From positions 5,401 through 69,400 of the forward strand of contig MFPT01000002.1 of NCBI GenBank assembly GCA_001782805.1: a stretch of 64,000 bases of DNA. The letters are read 5' to 3'. Below the pieces are notes generated by a model. It saw only the letters and a program-made list of their open reading frames with translations. It was not told the DNA's origin and ran no database searches. Numbering within the stretch: position 1 is the stretch's first letter; every line of letters starts with the position of its first letter. This DNA comes from Candidatus Magasanikbacteria bacterium RIFCSPHIGHO2_01_FULL_41_23. GTDB taxonomy: Bacteria > Patescibacteriota > Patescibacteriia > Magasanikbacterales > UBA922. The position numbers were made by a program, and so were the translations under genes. Shown in pieces: positions 2,889 through 56,572 of the stretch.

Positions 2889-2918
2889 ACATCCCTTTAA
2901 TAAGGGATTTTTTGTTTA
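2889..2918. terminator. Rho-independent terminator-like hairpin (atcccttt-aataa-gggat followed by a T-run)
   Basis: The stem is atccctt/aagggat with tttttgttt on the plus side. It sits immediately at the 3' end of the minus-strand ORF 2916-3374. Confidence 0.4.
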
Positions 2919-3374
2919 ATCTTCTGCAGGGTGTCCGTAGTGGAGCTTGCGTACGTGGTTATTATTTATTCCCCAATGAGGAATAATACTCCAAAAAAAC
3001 TTCTGCCCATTTTCAATTTCCTTAACAATAATTTTAAGTCGAACATCTTCGATAACAGCAATAAACTCGTAATAAGTTACATCTTTCAAGATCGTGTCAG
3101 TTCTACTGTGAACACGCACTCGCTCAAAGCTTTTGGCTTCACATCTTCCTTGTAAAGTTCCACTGTTTTTTAAAACCACTGGAGCAAAATGTAGCAATTT
3201 AAAACGCATATACTGATCATGTTGCAATCGAGCTTTGGCACGGCTTTTAAATTTAAGATGCTGGAGTTCTTCTGAATTAAAAAATACTTTGGATTTGAAA
3301 TAAGGGCAATCGACTGCCTCTAAAGTTTTATAAAGAGTTTCTGCTTTTTCTTTTACTTCTGAAAAATTTTGCAT
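2916..3374 (-). CDS. Hypothetical protein (152 aa)
   Basis: Complete ORF in operon context with the NUDIX and TatD genes. No motif was recognised. Confidence 0.4.
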   Translation of the reverse strand: MQNFSEVKEKAETLYKTLEAVDCPYFKSKVFFNSEELQHLKFKSRAKARLQHDQYMRFKLLHFAPVVLKNSGTLQGRCEAKSFERVRVHSRTDTILKDVTYYEFIAVIEDVRLKIIVKEIENGQKFFWSIIPHWGINNNHVRKLHYGHPAED

Positions 3375-3818: not shown

Positions 3819-4670
3819 TCATTTTATTTTATGAAACAGTTGTTTGGAATTGGCAAAAATGATCTCCTCCATTTCTTTTGCATCCTTGTCCCGCAATTCC
3901 GCAATTTTCGCCACACACTCCTCGGTCATCCATGGTTCACAGCGTTCACCGCGATATTTTTGCGGCGCCAAATATGGCGCGTCTGTTTCTACCAAAATTT
4001 TATTTTCTGGCATATTCCGAATCACCTCCCACAATGATTCTTGTTGTGCCGGATTGGTTTTTTTGGCTGGAAAAGTAATCACGCCGGTAAAACCAAGATA
4101 AAACCCTAACTTTAGATATTCTTGAGCATATTGCCAATTACCGGTGTAGCAATGAATCGTACCGCGCTGCTTGGGTAATTCAATTGTTTTTAGGAGTTCA
4201 ATCATGTGCTCATGTGCGTCACGGACATGAATAATTAACGGCACTTCATGCCTAATCGCAAACGCTACCTGCTTTTTAAAAACTTTTTTTTGTTTATCTA
4301 AAACTGTTTCCCGCGGCACATCAGGTGGCAGATGAAATAAATCCAAACCGCATTCACCGATTCCAATTATTTTTTCCGGAGCAATATTATAAATTTCTTC
4401 GTAATAAACTTCATCAAAATCCTCTTCGCGCGACATGAATTGGCTTTCTTCTTCATCAATATAAGTCGGGAATAAATGATTGGGATGCGTGCCAATACTG
4501 GCATACATATCGGAATTTTCTCTGGCCAGCAATACCGCTTTTTTACTCGTATCTTTCTGTGTACCCACTAAATTTAAAATAATACCACGTACGCGACAGC
4601 GCTCAATAATTTTTTCTCGATCCGCGTCTTGTCCCTTAAATTGCAGATGACAATGAGTATCAATTATCAT
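3819..4670 (-). CDS. tatD: TatD-family metal-dependent deoxyribonuclease/hydrolase
   Basis: The N-terminus MIIDTHCHL is the TatD signature, and the length and His/Asp/Glu pattern are typical of TatD. Confidence 0.85.
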   Translation of the reverse strand: MIIDTHCHLQFKGQDADREKIIERCRVRGIILNLVGTQKDTSKKAVLLARENSDMYASIGTHPNHLFPTYIDEEESQFMSREEDFDEVYYEEIYNIAPEKIIGIGECGLDLFHLPPDVPRETVLDKQKKVFKKQVAFAIRHEVPLIIHVRDAHEHMIELLKTIELPKQRGTIHCYTGNWQYAQEYLKLGFYLGFTGVITFPAKKTNPAQQESLWEVIRNMPENKILVETDAPYLAPQKYRGERCEPWMTEECVAKIAELRDKDAKEMEEIIFANSKQLFHKIK

Positions 4671-4742
4671 AAACGCTTGTTTATTTTTGTATATGTGATA
4701 TTATTTCCCAAACTCCGCGAGGGCGGAAAGGGAAAAACAATC

Positions 4743-5105
4743 ATGAATGTCACGAAAGTGGCACATCTGGTTCGCCAAGGCCGATCCGAAGGGATCAGCT
4801 GGCGCGTGTTCATCATCGAGAAGTCAGGAGATGCCGACATCGGCGTCTACACCGTGGACATCGGTCGCACCCAGATCGACTCCGAACATCACGGACGACT
4901 GATCAACGCCATGTTCCTGGATCACACCAAGTGGATCGAGGAGCTCGGACACCCGCGGTCTGACTGCGGCGTGGTGGATGATCCCAGCAAGATCCGTCAT
5001 GATCATATGTGGATGGTTCAGGGGAGCACGCTCGTGATCCCCTGGCTGAAGTTCATCCACTACCACGCGGTCGTCGAGGAGGAGACGATCACGACCATGC
5101 CCTGA
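4743..5105 (+). CDS. Hypothetical small protein encoded within a high-GC island
   Basis: The ORF begins MNVTKVAHLVRQGRSEGISWRVFIIEKSGDADIG.... Its local GC is visibly about 58-60%, against an AT-rich background. A plausible RBS (aaggga) lies upstream, and a GC hairpin (cccgacgaaaaatcgggg) lies downstream. Confidence 0.5.
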   Translation: MNVTKVAHLVRQGRSEGISWRVFIIEKSGDADIGVYTVDIGRTQIDSEHHGRLINAMFLDHTKWIEELGHPRSDCGVVDDPSKIRHDHMWMVQGSTLVIPWLKFIHYHAVVEEETITTMP

Positions 5106-5182
5106 TTCGGAGTTCTCGTTCCCTGCCTCCCGACGAAAAATCGGGGGGCGGGGTTCACACAACTTTGTTTATCCGAATAATT

Positions 5183-5725
5183 TTAAATAAATTTATTTTG
5201 CACGTAATCAACTGTTGACTTTAAAAGTTTGAGCGCGTCCGGCAACAATGGAATAAAAACATCGGCCACTGACCGAAATTTTGGCGCCAGTTCTGACTCG
5301 GCAATCATAGTCATAATTTTTTCTGACAATGGGAACCGTTCCACAAAAAATAAAATTAAACCCAATGTCATGGCTCCTTCTATAAAACCTAACCCAACTC
5401 CCAGCAAACGGTTTAACGAACTGATAAAAGGCAAACGGGTAATAATCGACAAAATGCGATCAACAATCCAAAAAGCAAAACCAACTAAACGGCTGATGAT
5501 AAAAAATGCTACAATGAACATCGTCACTCGAGCGATATTTCCTTCCCATCCAGTAATTTTAGTCAGCCACATGGCCATGGGTTCATAGTAGCGGCTGGCC
5601 AAATACGCTCCAGCCAATGTACCCATCAGTGATCCGGCCGTATGAATAAATCCAAACCAAAAACCAAATAGGGCAAAGCCGGCCATTATAATGAGAAGAG
5701 AGAGATCAAACCATGAAAGAGGCAT
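5183..5725 (-). CDS. CvpA-family membrane protein (colicin V production protein-like)
   Basis: 180 aa with four predicted TM segments. The N-terminus MPLSWFDLSLLIIMAGFALFGFWFGFIHTAGSL is typical of CvpA. Confidence 0.65.
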   Translation of the reverse strand: MPLSWFDLSLLIIMAGFALFGFWFGFIHTAGSLMGTLAGAYLASRYYEPMAMWLTKITGWEGNIARVTMFIVAFFIISRLVGFAFWIVDRILSIITRLPFISSLNRLLGVGLGFIEGAMTLGLILFFVERFPLSEKIMTMIAESELAPKFRSVADVFIPLLPDALKLLKSTVDYVQNKFI

Positions 5726-5763
5726 AAACTAATCTAAAAAATTAATTACCAGTAGTATATACC

Positions 5764-7299
5764 TTATAGGCGCGGAAATAAAATTTCACCTTTTTTAATT
5801 AGAATTTCAGCCGGCAAACCACCCCATTTTTTTTGAATATTCAAATGATCTTTCACTGCCATGTTTAATTGAGTAAGAATTTTAGATCCTGTTTCCGGAA
5901 TAATCGGCAACAAGGAAATTGCTACATGGCGCAAGCCTTCAGCCAATTGATATATAAGTTCTTGTATATTTTCTCCTTGTTTGACTTTTTCCCATGGTTT
6001 TTGTTGTGATATTAGTGCATCAACGCGTGACACAAAATTATTTATACCTGCGACAACAGCATCAAACGCATAATTACTGATATTTTTTTCATATTCCTCC
6101 CAAAACAATTTGACATCAAAAATATCTTCTGCGGTTCCATGGATTTTATTTTCACAATATTTTTCAATCATAGTCAAAATCCGCGATGTTAAGTTTCCGA
6201 TTCCATTGACCAGATGCGCCGTATAATATTCTTTAAAGCGCTCTTCAGAAAAATCACCATCATCATAGGCTGGCATCGCGCCTAACAAATAATACCGCAA
6301 GGCATCGGTGCCGATTTGCACCGAACCTAATGAACTAAATTTAGTAACAAGATCAAGTGGATTGATCACATTTCCCAATGATTTACTCATCTTCTCTCCG
6401 TCTGCAGTAATAAAACCATGAATAAAAATTTGTTTTGAGGTCGGCAGTTCAGCAGACAATAACATGGCTTGCCACATGGCCGCTTGCTGACGCAAATTAT
6501 CTTTACCCGCAACCTGTACGCCTGGCCAAAATTTGGCAAAATTATTTTCAGTCTTGCCCTGAGCATAATCCAATGGCCATCCCAAAGTTGAGATATAGTT
6601 GACGAGCGCGTCAAACCAAACATACAACACTTGTTCGGGATCATTTGGCACCGGCACTCCCCACGGCATTTTTGTTTTTAAACGTGAAATACTGAAATCT
6701 TCCAATCCTCGTTCCACAAATTTTTTGATTTCTTGCAAACGATTGGCCGGCACAACAAAATCCGGCTGGTTCTCGTATAATTCCAACAAAGCCGTCTGAT
6801 ATTGAGAAAATCGAAAAAAATAATTTTCTTCATCAATGAATTCCAGATTTAAGTTGGGATGAGTTGGACAATGATCATCAACCAATTCCGAATCGGTTTT
6901 TTCCAACTCACAACCCACGCAGTATTTAATTTTGTATTTTTTCTTGTAAATATCACCTTTGGCCAAACACAATTTCCAAAATTCCTGAGCCGCGGCACAA
7001 TGCTCGGGATCTGTCGTACGAATAAAATTCGTATAACTTAAATTTAACGCGGATTTTAACTCACCAAAGCGCGCCGCATATTCATCGCAATATGTTTGCG
7101 GATCAATTCCTTGCTCAATTGCTTTACGATAAATTTTCAGGCCATGCTCGTCAGTTCCCGTATTAAAAACAACATCTTCTCCCAATAAACGATGATAACG
7201 CGCCAAAACATCGGCCTGAATAATTTCCCAAGCAAAACCAATATGTGGATCCGCGTTCACGTAAGGCAAGGTAGTGGTAATGTAATAACTTGGCTTCAT
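5764..7299 (-). CDS. metG: Methionyl-tRNA synthetase
   Basis: HIGH-class motif PHIGFA and the KMSKS motif (KMSKSLGN) are present. 511 aa, without a C-terminal tRNA-binding extension. Confidence 0.95.
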   Translation of the reverse strand: MKPSYYITTTLPYVNADPHIGFAWEIIQADVLARYHRLLGEDVVFNTGTDEHGLKIYRKAIEQGIDPQTYCDEYAARFGELKSALNLSYTNFIRTTDPEHCAAAQEFWKLCLAKGDIYKKKYKIKYCVGCELEKTDSELVDDHCPTHPNLNLEFIDEENYFFRFSQYQTALLELYENQPDFVVPANRLQEIKKFVERGLEDFSISRLKTKMPWGVPVPNDPEQVLYVWFDALVNYISTLGWPLDYAQGKTENNFAKFWPGVQVAGKDNLRQQAAMWQAMLLSAELPTSKQIFIHGFITADGEKMSKSLGNVINPLDLVTKFSSLGSVQIGTDALRYYLLGAMPAYDDGDFSEERFKEYYTAHLVNGIGNLTSRILTMIEKYCENKIHGTAEDIFDVKLFWEEYEKNISNYAFDAVVAGINNFVSRVDALISQQKPWEKVKQGENIQELIYQLAEGLRHVAISLLPIIPETGSKILTQLNMAVKDHLNIQKKWGGLPAEILIKKGEILFPRL

Positions 7300-53812: not shown

Positions 53813-56572
53813 TTAGGCTCCATGACACTTCTTAAACTTTTTGCCTGAGCCACAATAACACGGTTCATTGCGTCCGATTTTTTGTTCAGGATCTGAAGAT
53901 TGTTTGTGCGCCAATTCCGCGACTTCACCCGCGGTTTTTTCCGCTCCGGACATTTGCAAGTTAGCATTTTCCATAATTGATGGCGCAATGTGCACACCAA
54001 TACCGATTTTGAAAAAACTGTAGACGACTTCTTTTTGGATGTCGGAAAGCAATTGATGAAACATGGTGAAACTTTGTTTTTTATATTCAATCAAGGGATC
54101 GCGTTGGCCATAGCCTTGGAGTCCGATTCCCGCACGCAAATAATCAATGGCCACCAAATGATCCACCCAAAAAGTATCAATAGCGCGGAGCAAAATCCCT
54201 TTTTGCAATTCCAAAAACATTTGTTTGGCATGTTCCGGAACAGGAAACTTATCATTGACTTCTGTTTGTAAAGCATCAAAAGCCAATTTGGCTTTTTCCA
54301 GTAAATGTTTAACAATTGAATCGCGCGTTGTGACATCGTCAAAATTACTTGTCCCCCGTGCGGCGGAAAAAGACAGTAATTTTTCTTTATCACTTTCTTC
54401 AAGAGGAAAAATCGTCCGCACGGTTTCATAAATTTCAACCACATTCCAATCCCCGGCCTCCACCGCATTGGTATGAAAAGAAACCACTGATTCAATTTCA
54501 TGTTCAATATCTTCATTGATCATCGCACCAAGTTCGGCAATGGCGTTTTCCCGTCGCGCGACATCCAGAATTTTTCGTCGCTTTTCATAAATCACCGTGC
54601 GTTGTTTATTTAAAACATCATCGTATTCCAGTAAATGTTTGCGGATGTCAAAATTATGCGCTTCCACTTTTTTCTGCGCGTTTTCCAAAAGTGACGTGAG
54701 CATTTTTTGTTCAATCGGCATGTCATCCGGAACATTCAGCCGTGTCATGACTGATTTTAAACGATCGCCACCAAAAATGCGCATCAGATCATCTTCGGTG
54801 GAAACAAAAAACTGGGTCATGCCCGGATCCCCTTGGCGAGCCGCACGACCGCGCAGCTGATTATCAATGCGACGTGATTCATGACGTTCGGTGCCAAGCA
54901 CAAACAAGCCACCAGCCTTATTCACTAATTCAATATCAGCGGGAATAGCGGGGACACCGCCCAATTTAATATCCACACCGCGTCCGGCCATATTCGTGGC
55001 CAGTGTTACCGCGTCCGGCCGTCCGGCTTGCGCGATAATTTCTCCTTCTCGTTCATGATTTTTGGCATTTAAAATTTCATGCGGGATTTCCAGCGCATGC
55101 AAATATTCAGACAGACGTTCATTTTTTTCCACAGAAATCGTGCCGATTAAAACCGGTTGATTTTTCGTCCGACATTCTTTAATAATTTCCGCAACAGCCT
55201 GGAATTTTCCGGCTTCAGTCTTATAAATCCGATCCGGACGATCAGTGCGTTGATCAATTTTATTCGTAGGAATGGTAACCACTTCCAAATGATAAATTTT
55301 AAATAATTCTTCGGCTTCGGTCGCCGCAGTGCCCGTCATGCCGGACAATTTGCCATACATGCGAAACAAATTTTGAAAAGTAATCGTGGCCAAAGTTTGG
55401 CTTTCTTTTTGGATCGCTAATTTTTCTTTGGCTTCCAAAGCTTGATGCAAGCCTTCGGAATACCGTCGCCCAGGCATTTTGCGGCCGGTAAATTCATCGA
55501 TAATAATAATTTCATTGCCTTCCACAATATAATCGCGGTCACGCTTAAATAAAACTTGAGCTTTCAGTGCTTGTTCAATATGATGAATCGTGCGAATTCC
55601 GCCCTCTTCGTAGATATTGGCGATTCCCAGCCATTGTTCAAATTTAGTAATGCCGTTTTCAGTTAATGTAGAACTGTGCATTTTTTCATCAAGGTTATAA
55701 TCACCTTGATCTAGACTTGCTTGTTCTGGCTTATTCCGAGTAGATCCAAGAAAACCTTCTTGAGGGGTAGCAGATTTATTTTCCTTAAGTTGCCGTACCA
55801 AATCCGCAAAGCGATAATACTCTTCTGTGGCTTCTTCGGCCGGAGCGGAAATAATCAACGGAGTCCGCGCTTCATCAATTAAAATGGAATCAACTTCATC
55901 CACAATGGCAAAGTTCATCTCTGTTCCCGGACGCATGACCATTTCGCCGAGATCCGGCACCATGTTATCACGCAAATAATCAAAACCGAATTCATTATTC
56001 GTGCCATACGTAATATCACAGCGATAGGCTTCTTGGCGCGTGCTGAGACGCAAAAATTCATCTTCAACCGTGACATCATAAATAAATGAAACCCGTTGAT
56101 TCTGAATAATTCCGACAGTCATTCCCAACCAATCATAAATTTTTCCCATCCAGACCGCGTCGCGTTTGGCCAAATAATCATTGACTGTTACCAAATGAAC
56201 CCCTTTGCCAGCTAGGGCATTTAGATATACAGGCAAAGTGGCCACCAAAGTTTTGCCTTCACCCGTCCGCATTTCCGCGATCATACCACGATGCAGAACA
56301 ATTCCGCCGATCATTTGCACATCATAATGACGCATGCCAGTAGCGCGTTTACTGGCTTCGCGCACAACGGCAAAAGCTTCGGGCAAAATCGCCTCCAGTG
56401 TCTCGCCTTTTGTCAAACGTTCTTTAAATTCCGGGGTTTTTGCCTTTAATTGTTCATCCGACAAAACCGAAACTAGGGATTCAAAACCATTAATTTCCGC
56501 AACAATCGGCTGCAGTTTTTCCACCAAGCGACGATTTCCCGGACCAAAATATTTTTTAAATAAACTAATCAT
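53813..56572 (-). CDS. secA: Preprotein translocase ATPase SecA
   Basis: DEAD-like motor motifs, preprotein cross-linking domain, and the C-terminal zinc-binding tail CYCGSGKKFKKCHG. Confidence 0.95.
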   Translation of the reverse strand: MISLFKKYFGPGNRRLVEKLQPIVAEINGFESLVSVLSDEQLKAKTPEFKERLTKGETLEAILPEAFAVVREASKRATGMRHYDVQMIGGIVLHRGMIAEMRTGEGKTLVATLPVYLNALAGKGVHLVTVNDYLAKRDAVWMGKIYDWLGMTVGIIQNQRVSFIYDVTVEDEFLRLSTRQEAYRCDITYGTNNEFGFDYLRDNMVPDLGEMVMRPGTEMNFAIVDEVDSILIDEARTPLIISAPAEEATEEYYRFADLVRQLKENKSATPQEGFLGSTRNKPEQASLDQGDYNLDEKMHSSTLTENGITKFEQWLGIANIYEEGGIRTIHHIEQALKAQVLFKRDRDYIVEGNEIIIIDEFTGRKMPGRRYSEGLHQALEAKEKLAIQKESQTLATITFQNLFRMYGKLSGMTGTAATEAEELFKIYHLEVVTIPTNKIDQRTDRPDRIYKTEAGKFQAVAEIIKECRTKNQPVLIGTISVEKNERLSEYLHALEIPHEILNAKNHEREGEIIAQAGRPDAVTLATNMAGRGVDIKLGGVPAIPADIELVNKAGGLFVLGTERHESRRIDNQLRGRAARQGDPGMTQFFVSTEDDLMRIFGGDRLKSVMTRLNVPDDMPIEQKMLTSLLENAQKKVEAHNFDIRKHLLEYDDVLNKQRTVIYEKRRKILDVARRENAIAELGAMINEDIEHEIESVVSFHTNAVEAGDWNVVEIYETVRTIFPLEESDKEKLLSFSAARGTSNFDDVTTRDSIVKHLLEKAKLAFDALQTEVNDKFPVPEHAKQMFLELQKGILLRAIDTFWVDHLVAIDYLRAGIGLQGYGQRDPLIEYKKQSFTMFHQLLSDIQKEVVYSFFKIGIGVHIAPSIMENANLQMSGAEKTAGEVAELAHKQSSDPEQKIGRNEPCYCGSGKKFKKCHGA

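Follow-up and report, generated by a model that had tools for sequence, protein, structure and literature searches.

A GC-rich accessory gene unit at a recurrently occupied cvpA/tatD junction in Candidatus Magasanikbacteria

Within a 64,000-nucleotide stretch of a Candidatus Magasanikbacteria genome (hereafter the window), one short block of GC-rich DNA separates the chromosomal genes tatD and cvpA. By its reading frame and its composition, the block holds a genuine protein-coding accessory gene. The unit has diverged together with the chromosome around it and is therefore not a recent arrival. We favour, with moderate confidence, the reading that it is an old, moron-like import which came from a very GC-rich donor, entered a hotspot that lacks recognisable mobile elements, is ameliorating and has been co-inherited with the chromosome.

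The insert, its expression signals and its gene

Between positions 4743 and 5160 the GC content reaches 58.4%, against 40.2% for the whole 64-kb window, which bears out the compositional jump claimed in a preliminary description of this DNA. Windows of 418 bp have a mean GC of 40.2% with a standard deviation of 3.6%, placing the island about 5 SD out and making it the sole interval above 52% GC in the 64 kb. The sliding-window plot which that description had suggested as a check returned this single peak with two sharp edges: at 50-bp resolution GC rises from 0.24-0.44 to 0.58 at about 4750 and falls from 0.56 to 0.24 at about 5150-5175, the latter being the return to AT-rich sequence already reported to follow a GC hairpin. 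The open reading frame itself (4743-5105) is 57.9% GC, and its third-position value (GC3) of 0.78 lies 8.3 SD above that of the 53 other ORF-defined genes of the window (mean 0.37, maximum 0.53). Base composition thus deviates from that of the neighbouring genes on both measures (58% vs 40% GC; GC3 0.78 vs 0.37). A weaker GC bump at 54721-55120 (0.53 in 300-bp windows) falls within the 919-aa secA and looks like ordinary within-gene compositional variation.

Pfam confirms tatD and cvpA, the two flanks named at the outset, and the parts of the locus are as follows:

3819-4670, minus strand: tatD (283 aa), the left flank; Pfam TatD_DNase, 1.5e-70
4671-4742, plus strand: AT-rich 5' non-coding part of the insert (72 nt, 38% GC), holding the predicted promoter
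4676-4682, plus strand: -35-like CTTGTT/TTGTTT of the predicted cassette promoter
4696-4697 and 4699-4704, plus strand: TG and TATTAT, the extended -10 of the predicted cassette promoter
4706-4733, plus strand: hairpin in the 5' UTR (-13.7 kcal/mol, z -2.9)
10 nt before the ATG, plus strand: purine-rich GGGA in the 3' arm of the 4706-4733 hairpin
4743-5105, plus strand: coding sequence of the family A protein (120 aa; GC at codon positions 1/2/3 of 0.59/0.37/0.78)
5121-5153, plus strand: GC-rich 3' hairpin, a 13-bp stem with G·U pairs (5121-5133/5141-5153)
5154-5182, no strand: right edge of the insert, GGGGTTCACACAAC and then a 22-nt AT-rich spacer to the cvpA stop codon
5183-5725, minus strand: cvpA (180 aa), the right flank; Pfam Colicin_V, 7.7e-25

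We call the encoded protein and its homologs at loci L003 and L071 family A. At all three loci the arrangement CTTG(A/T)TT-16 nt-TGnTATTAT-...CCCAAAC is kept, and from this conservation we infer that CTTGwT-16-TGnTATTAT would act as the promoter of the family A unit. L003 also folds an equivalent leader hairpin, with one U-A to G-C exchange relative to the window. The 72-nt promoter region was probably either never GC-rich or rapidly selected for function in the new host. On the tatD strand, a TATAC(T/A) box lies shortly upstream of the tatD start codon in insert-bearing loci (the window, at 4671-4700, L071, L073, L077 and L091); in the window it is 17 nt from that start, and its form on the cassette strand reads AGTATAnC. 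This box may serve as a substitute promoter for tatD, a gene that the insert separates from cvpA.

At the other end of the unit, a loop of 7 nt (CGAAAAA) closes the 3' hairpin, with a weak T-rich tract beyond it; the core of the stem is the GC hairpin quoted in the preliminary description. Its predicted free energy is -32.7 kcal/mol on the plus strand (z -4.0) and -25.0 kcal/mol on the minus strand (z -1.3), the difference in favour of the cassette strand arising from the G·U pairs in the stem. It is probably the terminator of the cassette or an mRNA-stabilising stem. A consensus terminator scan made no call on it because a clean U-tract is absent, and the equivalent 3' hairpins in families B and D (see below) have canonical T-runs. 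The unit and cvpA converge, so any transcript running on past the end of cvpA would be antisense to the unit. The spacer at 5161-5182 is 23% GC, and the right-end motif is common to the window (GGGGTTCACACAAC) and L003 (GGGGGATCACTCAAC).

The ORF begins with an ATG at 4743 on the plus strand and encodes 120 amino acids starting with MNVTKVAHLVRQGRSEG; it is the single frame that had been described from the sequence. Among the three homologs the plus frame alone is free of stops in every case, and divergence by codon position follows the order 2<1<3. An antisense ORF (4824-5162, minus strand) had been set aside as spurious, and we likewise read it as a by-product, because its codon-position GC is inverted (0.78/0.39/0.61) and a stop interrupts it in two of the three homologs. 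The term orphan, also applied to the protein, fits in that it is a near-orphan but not in the strict sense, as two distant homologs exist, both of them syntenic. The three family A proteins share 24 invariant positions, including W20, W64, W90, W101, H61, H88, D60, C75, R11, R72 and R85, and the two invariant histidines lie in two DHxxW/DHxW motifs. No signal peptide is apparent, and Pfam, NCBIfam, PHROGs, PADLOC and a PDB profile search returned no match. An AF2 model from a two-sequence alignment of the family, which tentatively gave three or four strands and then a helix, had a pLDDT of 40 and is unusable. Because the cargo of this hotspot includes Tat/Sec-type lipoproteins and all of it evolves fast, our guess is a strain-variable cytoplasmic protein that interacts with other organisms or phages or defends against them.

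Two readings would deprive this gene of its meaning. An abrupt compositional step may betray an assembly chimera or high-GC contamination, MAGs can hold mis-joins, and the preliminary description had named this option; against this, another NCBI MAG (GCA_001784325.1) matches the island with its two junctions at 100% identity over 4.5 kb, and the independent ENA MEGAHIT contig k141_111462 spans the island and both junctions with 701 bp at 100% identity. Identical junctions in independent assemblies from different assemblers exclude a one-off chimera. Diverged homologs and analogous units occupy the cvpA/tatD junction in many unrelated projects, and the AT-rich predicted promoter is contiguous with the GC-rich ORF and conserved together with it, so that we regard an artefact as hardly credible and the suggestion as refuted. 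The block could also be a structured non-coding RNA in which the ORF is incidental, as might be expected of a GC-rich intergenic block within an AT-rich genome, and the sense strand of the window does fold unusually well against shuffled sequences (z -5.2 for the transcript 4711-5165, plus strand; -3.7 for the coding sequence). This excess is, however, missing from the homologs in L003 and L071 (coding-sequence z +0.3 and +0.25); there is therefore no conserved RNA structure, and Rfam gave no match at E<=1. The codon-position pattern, the plus frame open in 3/3 homologs, the order of codon-position divergence and the invariant Trp, His, Asp and Cys residues all speak for a protein, and we dropped the structured RNA, after folding the homologs and searching Rfam, as a very improbable explanation.

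Two observations belong to the sequence records. In NCBI the protein is OGH64861.1, from a Candidatus Magasanikbacteria MAG, and an identical sequence stands under two further MAG records. Bases 44-744 of the ENA MEGAHIT contig L001 equal window positions 4595-5295, while its bases 1-43 do not match, which reflects either an artefact at the contig end or strain variation within tatD. Strong transcript structure is seen in the window lineage only, and not in L003 or L071.

The cvpA/tatD junction in related genomes

Alignment scans with the TatD clade and contig look-ups yielded about 85 syntenic loci. In more than 25 of these, across Magasanikbacteria, cvpA abuts tatD with a gap of -28 to +30 bp; this is the ancestral state, in which 2-17 bp separate the start codon of tatD from the cvpA stop. 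In the clade defined by a TatD at least 79% identical to that of the window, the junction takes these states:

Empty: L004, L010, L072, L074, L089
Family A: the window, L003, L071
Family B: L077, L005
Family C: L005, in tandem with family B
Family F: L088, L091
Family D: L007-L009
Scar (short remnant): L090, the family-D -35 box fused to its terminator
Possible family B scar, 80 bp, with weak alignment support: L073

Comparison with the syntenic region of relatives, which the preliminary description had advised, thus found one core-gene interval that stands empty, keeps a 70-80-bp scar or holds units from four families with no relation to one another (A, B, C/F and D). Its remark that the mechanism of insertion is of interest was apt, because the site is a recurrent hotspot. 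In all-vs-all BLASTP, C and F are distantly related (E 6e-7) and the other families unrelated. A neighbour-joining tree of CvpA and TatD, which rests on two genes and carries no support values, places each family within one subclade, and we therefore count at least three independent insertions, then losses. On the same tree the empty, filled and scarred states are interleaved, as in rapid turnover.

The units themselves are of uniform make. Each is about 450-610 bp long, and inserts of one or two genes measure 450-1230 bp. Judged by sequence, the B and D units carry textbook promoters, Shine-Dalgarno elements and hairpin-plus-T-run terminators, the predicted promoters of families D and B being TTGACT/TTGACA-17-TATTAT/TATGTT. 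The family A unit lies on the strand opposite cvpA/tatD, and C and F lie on the tatD strand. C and F proteins begin with a twin-arginine-like signal followed by a lipobox and gave sub-threshold TAT-signal matches in library searches; beyond these, Pfam, NCBIfam, PHROGs and PADLOC returned nothing for families B-F, and IMG/VR scans with families B, D, E and F gave no match. In every unit the cargo has a GC3 of 0.65-0.83 (0.71-0.83 across the three family A loci), compared to about 0.26-0.51 for tatD and cvpA of the hosts.

No integrase, transposase or other mobility gene was found among the Pfam-marked called genes in the 3-10 kb flanks of six syntenic loci, and no significant terminal repeats were found at the insert. 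An 8-bp TTGTTTAT repeat was considered as a target-site duplication and rejected, since the left of its two copies coincides with the conserved -35 region and L003 lacks the one on the right. Adjoining tatD, about 40 nt are common to L088 (family F) and L003 (family A), which is a hint of recombination in the flank.

A second site nearby holds GC-rich cargo as well. Family E, a GC-rich lipoprotein (MRSNIIFALIIGFF..AGCGNWN...), lies between Ser_hydrolase, the gene after tatD, and ligA, where local GC is 0.60-0.70 against about 0.40 for the loci as a whole; nothing comparable lies at the corresponding position of the window. Its members are:

L010, 3905-4249, minus strand
L074, 4469-4999, minus strand
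L005, about 5495-6037, minus strand

In the window, a 152-aa ORF between the NUDIX gene and ligA (2916-3374, minus strand) has no Pfam match and a GC3 of 0.28 and is conserved in L002; it is another lineage-specific unknown beside the hotspot. MAG records titled 'uncultured Gammaproteobacteria bacterium' (TPA_asm; L072, L073, L074, L076, L078, L080, L081, L083 and L087) encode TatD proteins 54-82% identical to that of the window, most of them in the Magasanikbacteria-type cvpA-tatD arrangement, and the labels on this set look wrong. In L089, bases 1-25 at the end of a Logan contig read AGATCGGAAGAGCACACGTCTGAA and are fused to the cvpA coding sequence; we take this to be an Illumina TruSeq adapter left untrimmed in a public assembly.

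Age and source of the GC-rich cargo

Homologs of family A are exceedingly rare. Among 1.84 billion representatives, searched exhaustively with phmmer, P0004 was the one true homolog (E 2e-14); two eukaryotic repeat proteins in the output were spurious matches. P0004 sits on the 1.2-kb contig L003, again between tatD and cvpA and again in an ORF of 58% GC; it is 43% identical to the island protein, while CvpA is 88% identical over the 121 residues that the contig covers. The third member, at the cvpA/tatD junction of L071 (MAG nzgw355), has a GC3 of 0.83 and is 31% identical to the island protein (31-32% to the other two members). Neither the single sequence nor a three-sequence profile retrieved more than the island protein's own cluster and P0004 from 5.8 billion proteins in a word-indexed search. 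Scans of JGI metagenomes and IMG/VR with the family A alignment gave no match, as did scans of phage and plasmid collections with family A, and a genome-collection scan with the CvpA alignment found nothing. In all collections searched, family A homologs were found at the cvpA/tatD junction only. GC-rich Magasanikbacteria do exist (tatD of GW2011_GWA2_56_11 has a GC3 of 0.67), and the loci and databases searched hold no family A homolog from them.

The preliminary description had proposed recent transfer from a high-GC donor. One half of this proposal stands, since a foreign high-GC origin is supported in its direction, but recency fails. At 4-fold sites the flanks of family A hosts are 33-44% identical, where 25% is expected by chance; this corresponds to about 1.1-1.6 substitutions per site (dS), near synonymous saturation. 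Third positions of the window and L003 cassettes differ at p=0.51, or about 0.97 substitutions per site by hand calculation, close to the 4-fold divergence of the flanks, and the identities within family A (43% vs 31-32%) match the flank tree. Cassette proteins have diverged 3-6 times as far as TatD in 8/8 pairs from four families, and the family A protein evolves 3-4 times faster than TatD.

An acquisition shortly before sampling might still be argued from the extreme and sharp step in composition, with a GC3 of 0.78, and from the close relatives L004 and L089, which hold no insert at all. Against it stand the homologs in L003 and L071, at the same junction and just 43% and 31% identical in step with the flank tree, the near-equality of cassette and flank divergence, and the AT-rich promoter region that is homologous in 3/3 family A loci. 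The best-match check for a donor failed too: no collection searched (5.8-15 billion proteins, JGI metagenomes, IMG/VR, phages and plasmids) holds a high-identity donor, or any donor with nucleotide or protein similarity to family A. Neither an age younger than the split of the relatives nor a near-identical donor, the marks of a recently transferred islet, was found, and we consider so late an arrival quite improbable. An old arrival raises the question of why the cargo is still so rich in GC. In a two-state decay model, which is rough, the measured flank divergence would bring GC3 down to at most 0.46-0.67 today even from a starting value of 1.0, and the 0.71-0.83 of family A exceeds this ceiling; for a single old import to hold, the donor must have had a GC3 of at least 0.95, or dS is overestimated, or some force slows the decay. 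Another explanation takes the gene to be native or long resident, with selection on GC-ending codons or on mRNA properties, or GC-biased gene conversion at a recombination hotspot, actively upholding its high GC. The persistence of high GC3 in three lineages at a dS of about 1.1-1.6, above the simple decay model, fits such maintenance, as do the mere 38% GC of the non-coding 5' part of the family A unit and the unusual structure of the window mRNA (z -5.2), and midway through the analysis we favoured it on the strength of the decay model.

Polarised substitutions changed this assessment. Family E, the one family young enough for changes to be polarised with an outgroup, shows 13 GC→AT against 2 AT→GC synonymous third-position changes, compared to 23 GC→AT and 34 AT→GC for tatD in the same three genomes (Fisher p=0.0028); host mutation bias alone predicts 4-8:1 GC→AT at the GC3 of this family. 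The cargo is therefore ameliorating, and family E is losing GC at about the neutral rate. Family A yields just 2:0, because few of its sites could be polarised. Active maintenance of GC was downgraded after this test and now appears doubtful: the 13:2 bias of family E fits pure mutational decay, the excess RNA structure is not conserved (coding-sequence z -3.7 vs +0.3 and +0.25), and a common source better accounts for the composition shared by all six families (A-F, with C and F distantly related). The foreign high-GC origin is supported because the excess GC is mostly synonymous and family E is losing GC. In our reading, family A came from a very GC-rich source (GC3 at least 0.95) and has so far ameliorated only in part; its agreement with the decay model is borderline, and its decay may have been somewhat retarded. 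A broader version, unlikely in our view, is that these episymbionts repeatedly install, at one operon junction, single GC-rich genes with their expression signals from one high-GC source, for example the organism they live on, by a capture route without a classical mobile element, or else that the high GC is actively maintained.

How the units come and go is a separate matter. If the old-import reading holds, family A would have entered once, in the ancestor of the subclade of the window, L003 and L071, from a donor of very high GC, as a self-contained unit of predicted promoter, short structured leader, ORF and 3' hairpin. The unit occupies precisely the interval from the cvpA stop codon to the tatD start codon and runs on the opposite strand; among groundwater Candidatus Magasanikbacteria (CPR/Patescibacteria), one clade has this junction as its lineage-specific hotspot. 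After its entry the unit would have passed down with the chromosome while the AT-biased mutation of the host slowly eroded its GC, and differences in presence and absence would most likely stem from homologous recombination in the conserved flanks together with internal deletion, a mechanism we infer because neither an integrase nor a transposase was found at the six loci, nor terminal repeats at the insert. A dedicated but unrecognised system of cassette capture or site-specific insertion at cvpA/tatD, perhaps with independent arrivals of diverged family A alleles, would explain at least three independent insertions of unrelated units into one 2-17-bp spacer in a narrow clade, the two tandem units of L005 and the uniform unit size of about 450-610 bp. 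It is distinctly unlikely, however, as the gene tables of six syntenic loci list no recombinase, the families have no end motif in common and no target duplication, the TTGTTTAT repeat overlaps the conserved -35 box with no right-hand copy in L003, and the units come in mixed orientation, with C and F on the tatD strand.

Meaning and comparison with known systems

For annotation, the case shows that a striking compositional island in a CPR MAG can be a stable, fast-evolving accessory gene rather than contamination or newly transferred DNA. A small new protein family of three members, with conserved Trp, His, Asp and Cys positions, is defined as well, and for the biology of CPR bacteria the case documents a precise spot for gene swapping without recognisable mobile elements in a reduced genome. 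Over the two sites the cargo amounts to six families (A-F), all GC-rich and foreign-looking, some of them Tat/Sec-type lipoproteins, and the case offers a compact natural example for measuring rates of amelioration. The identity of the donor, if found, might point to the DNA-exchange partners of uncultured episymbionts; should the single-source reading be true, the partner organism would have left a molecular fingerprint in the composition of the cargo and in its Tat-type lipoproteins.

Hotspots of horizontal transfer without recognisable mobile elements have been described before, and their turnover was proposed to proceed by double homologous recombination in the flanking core genes (Oliveira, Touchon, Cury and Rocha, 2017; PMC5635113). 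The cvpA/tatD junction resembles these hotspots in being a fixed core-gene interval that holds different accessory genes in relatives, in its rapid turnover between filled, empty and scarred states, and in the lack of an integrase or transposase at the six loci inspected, which makes double homologous recombination the natural mechanism. Unlike them, it receives very small inserts of one or two genes (450-1230 bp), sits in a reduced CPR genome, and holds cargo that is GC-richer than the host throughout.

The organisation of the unit recalls that of phage morons, which Hendrix and colleagues reportedly described as autonomous promoter-ORF-terminator units of deviant composition between two prophage genes. 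Here, too, a single ORF with a sigma70-like predicted promoter, a 3' hairpin and a deviant composition is set precisely between two genes, but the neighbours are chromosomal housekeeping genes (the metG-cvpA-tatD operon) rather than phage genes. The flanks, consisting of metG, cvpA, tatD, the NUDIX gene and ligA, give no sign of residence in a phage or prophage; no phage genes lie nearby, and the unit has no PHROG or IMG/VR matches. Integron cassettes are likewise small and mostly hold one uncharacterised ORF; like the unit pair of L005 they can stand in tandem, and they, too, vary between close relatives. Unlike such cassettes, the present units carry their own predicted promoters and lie in mixed orientation, and the 3' hairpins of A, B and D share no sequence; inspection revealed no shared attC-like core, and the flanks no intI or other integrase.

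GC-rich intergenic regions in AT-rich bacteria are often structured non-coding RNAs, which is the basis of the GC-IGR discovery approach. The island resembles them as a GC-rich block between genes of an AT-rich genome, but differs in its coding signature, in having no Rfam family and in the lack of a conserved fold. Acquired and orphan bacterial genes are usually AT-richer than their host. Taken together, an accessory orphan gene, a hotspot free of mobile elements and a moron-like organisation are each of a known kind, and what is mildly unusual is the uniformly GC-rich cargo in an AT-rich CPR genome and the repeated reuse of one 2-17-bp junction.
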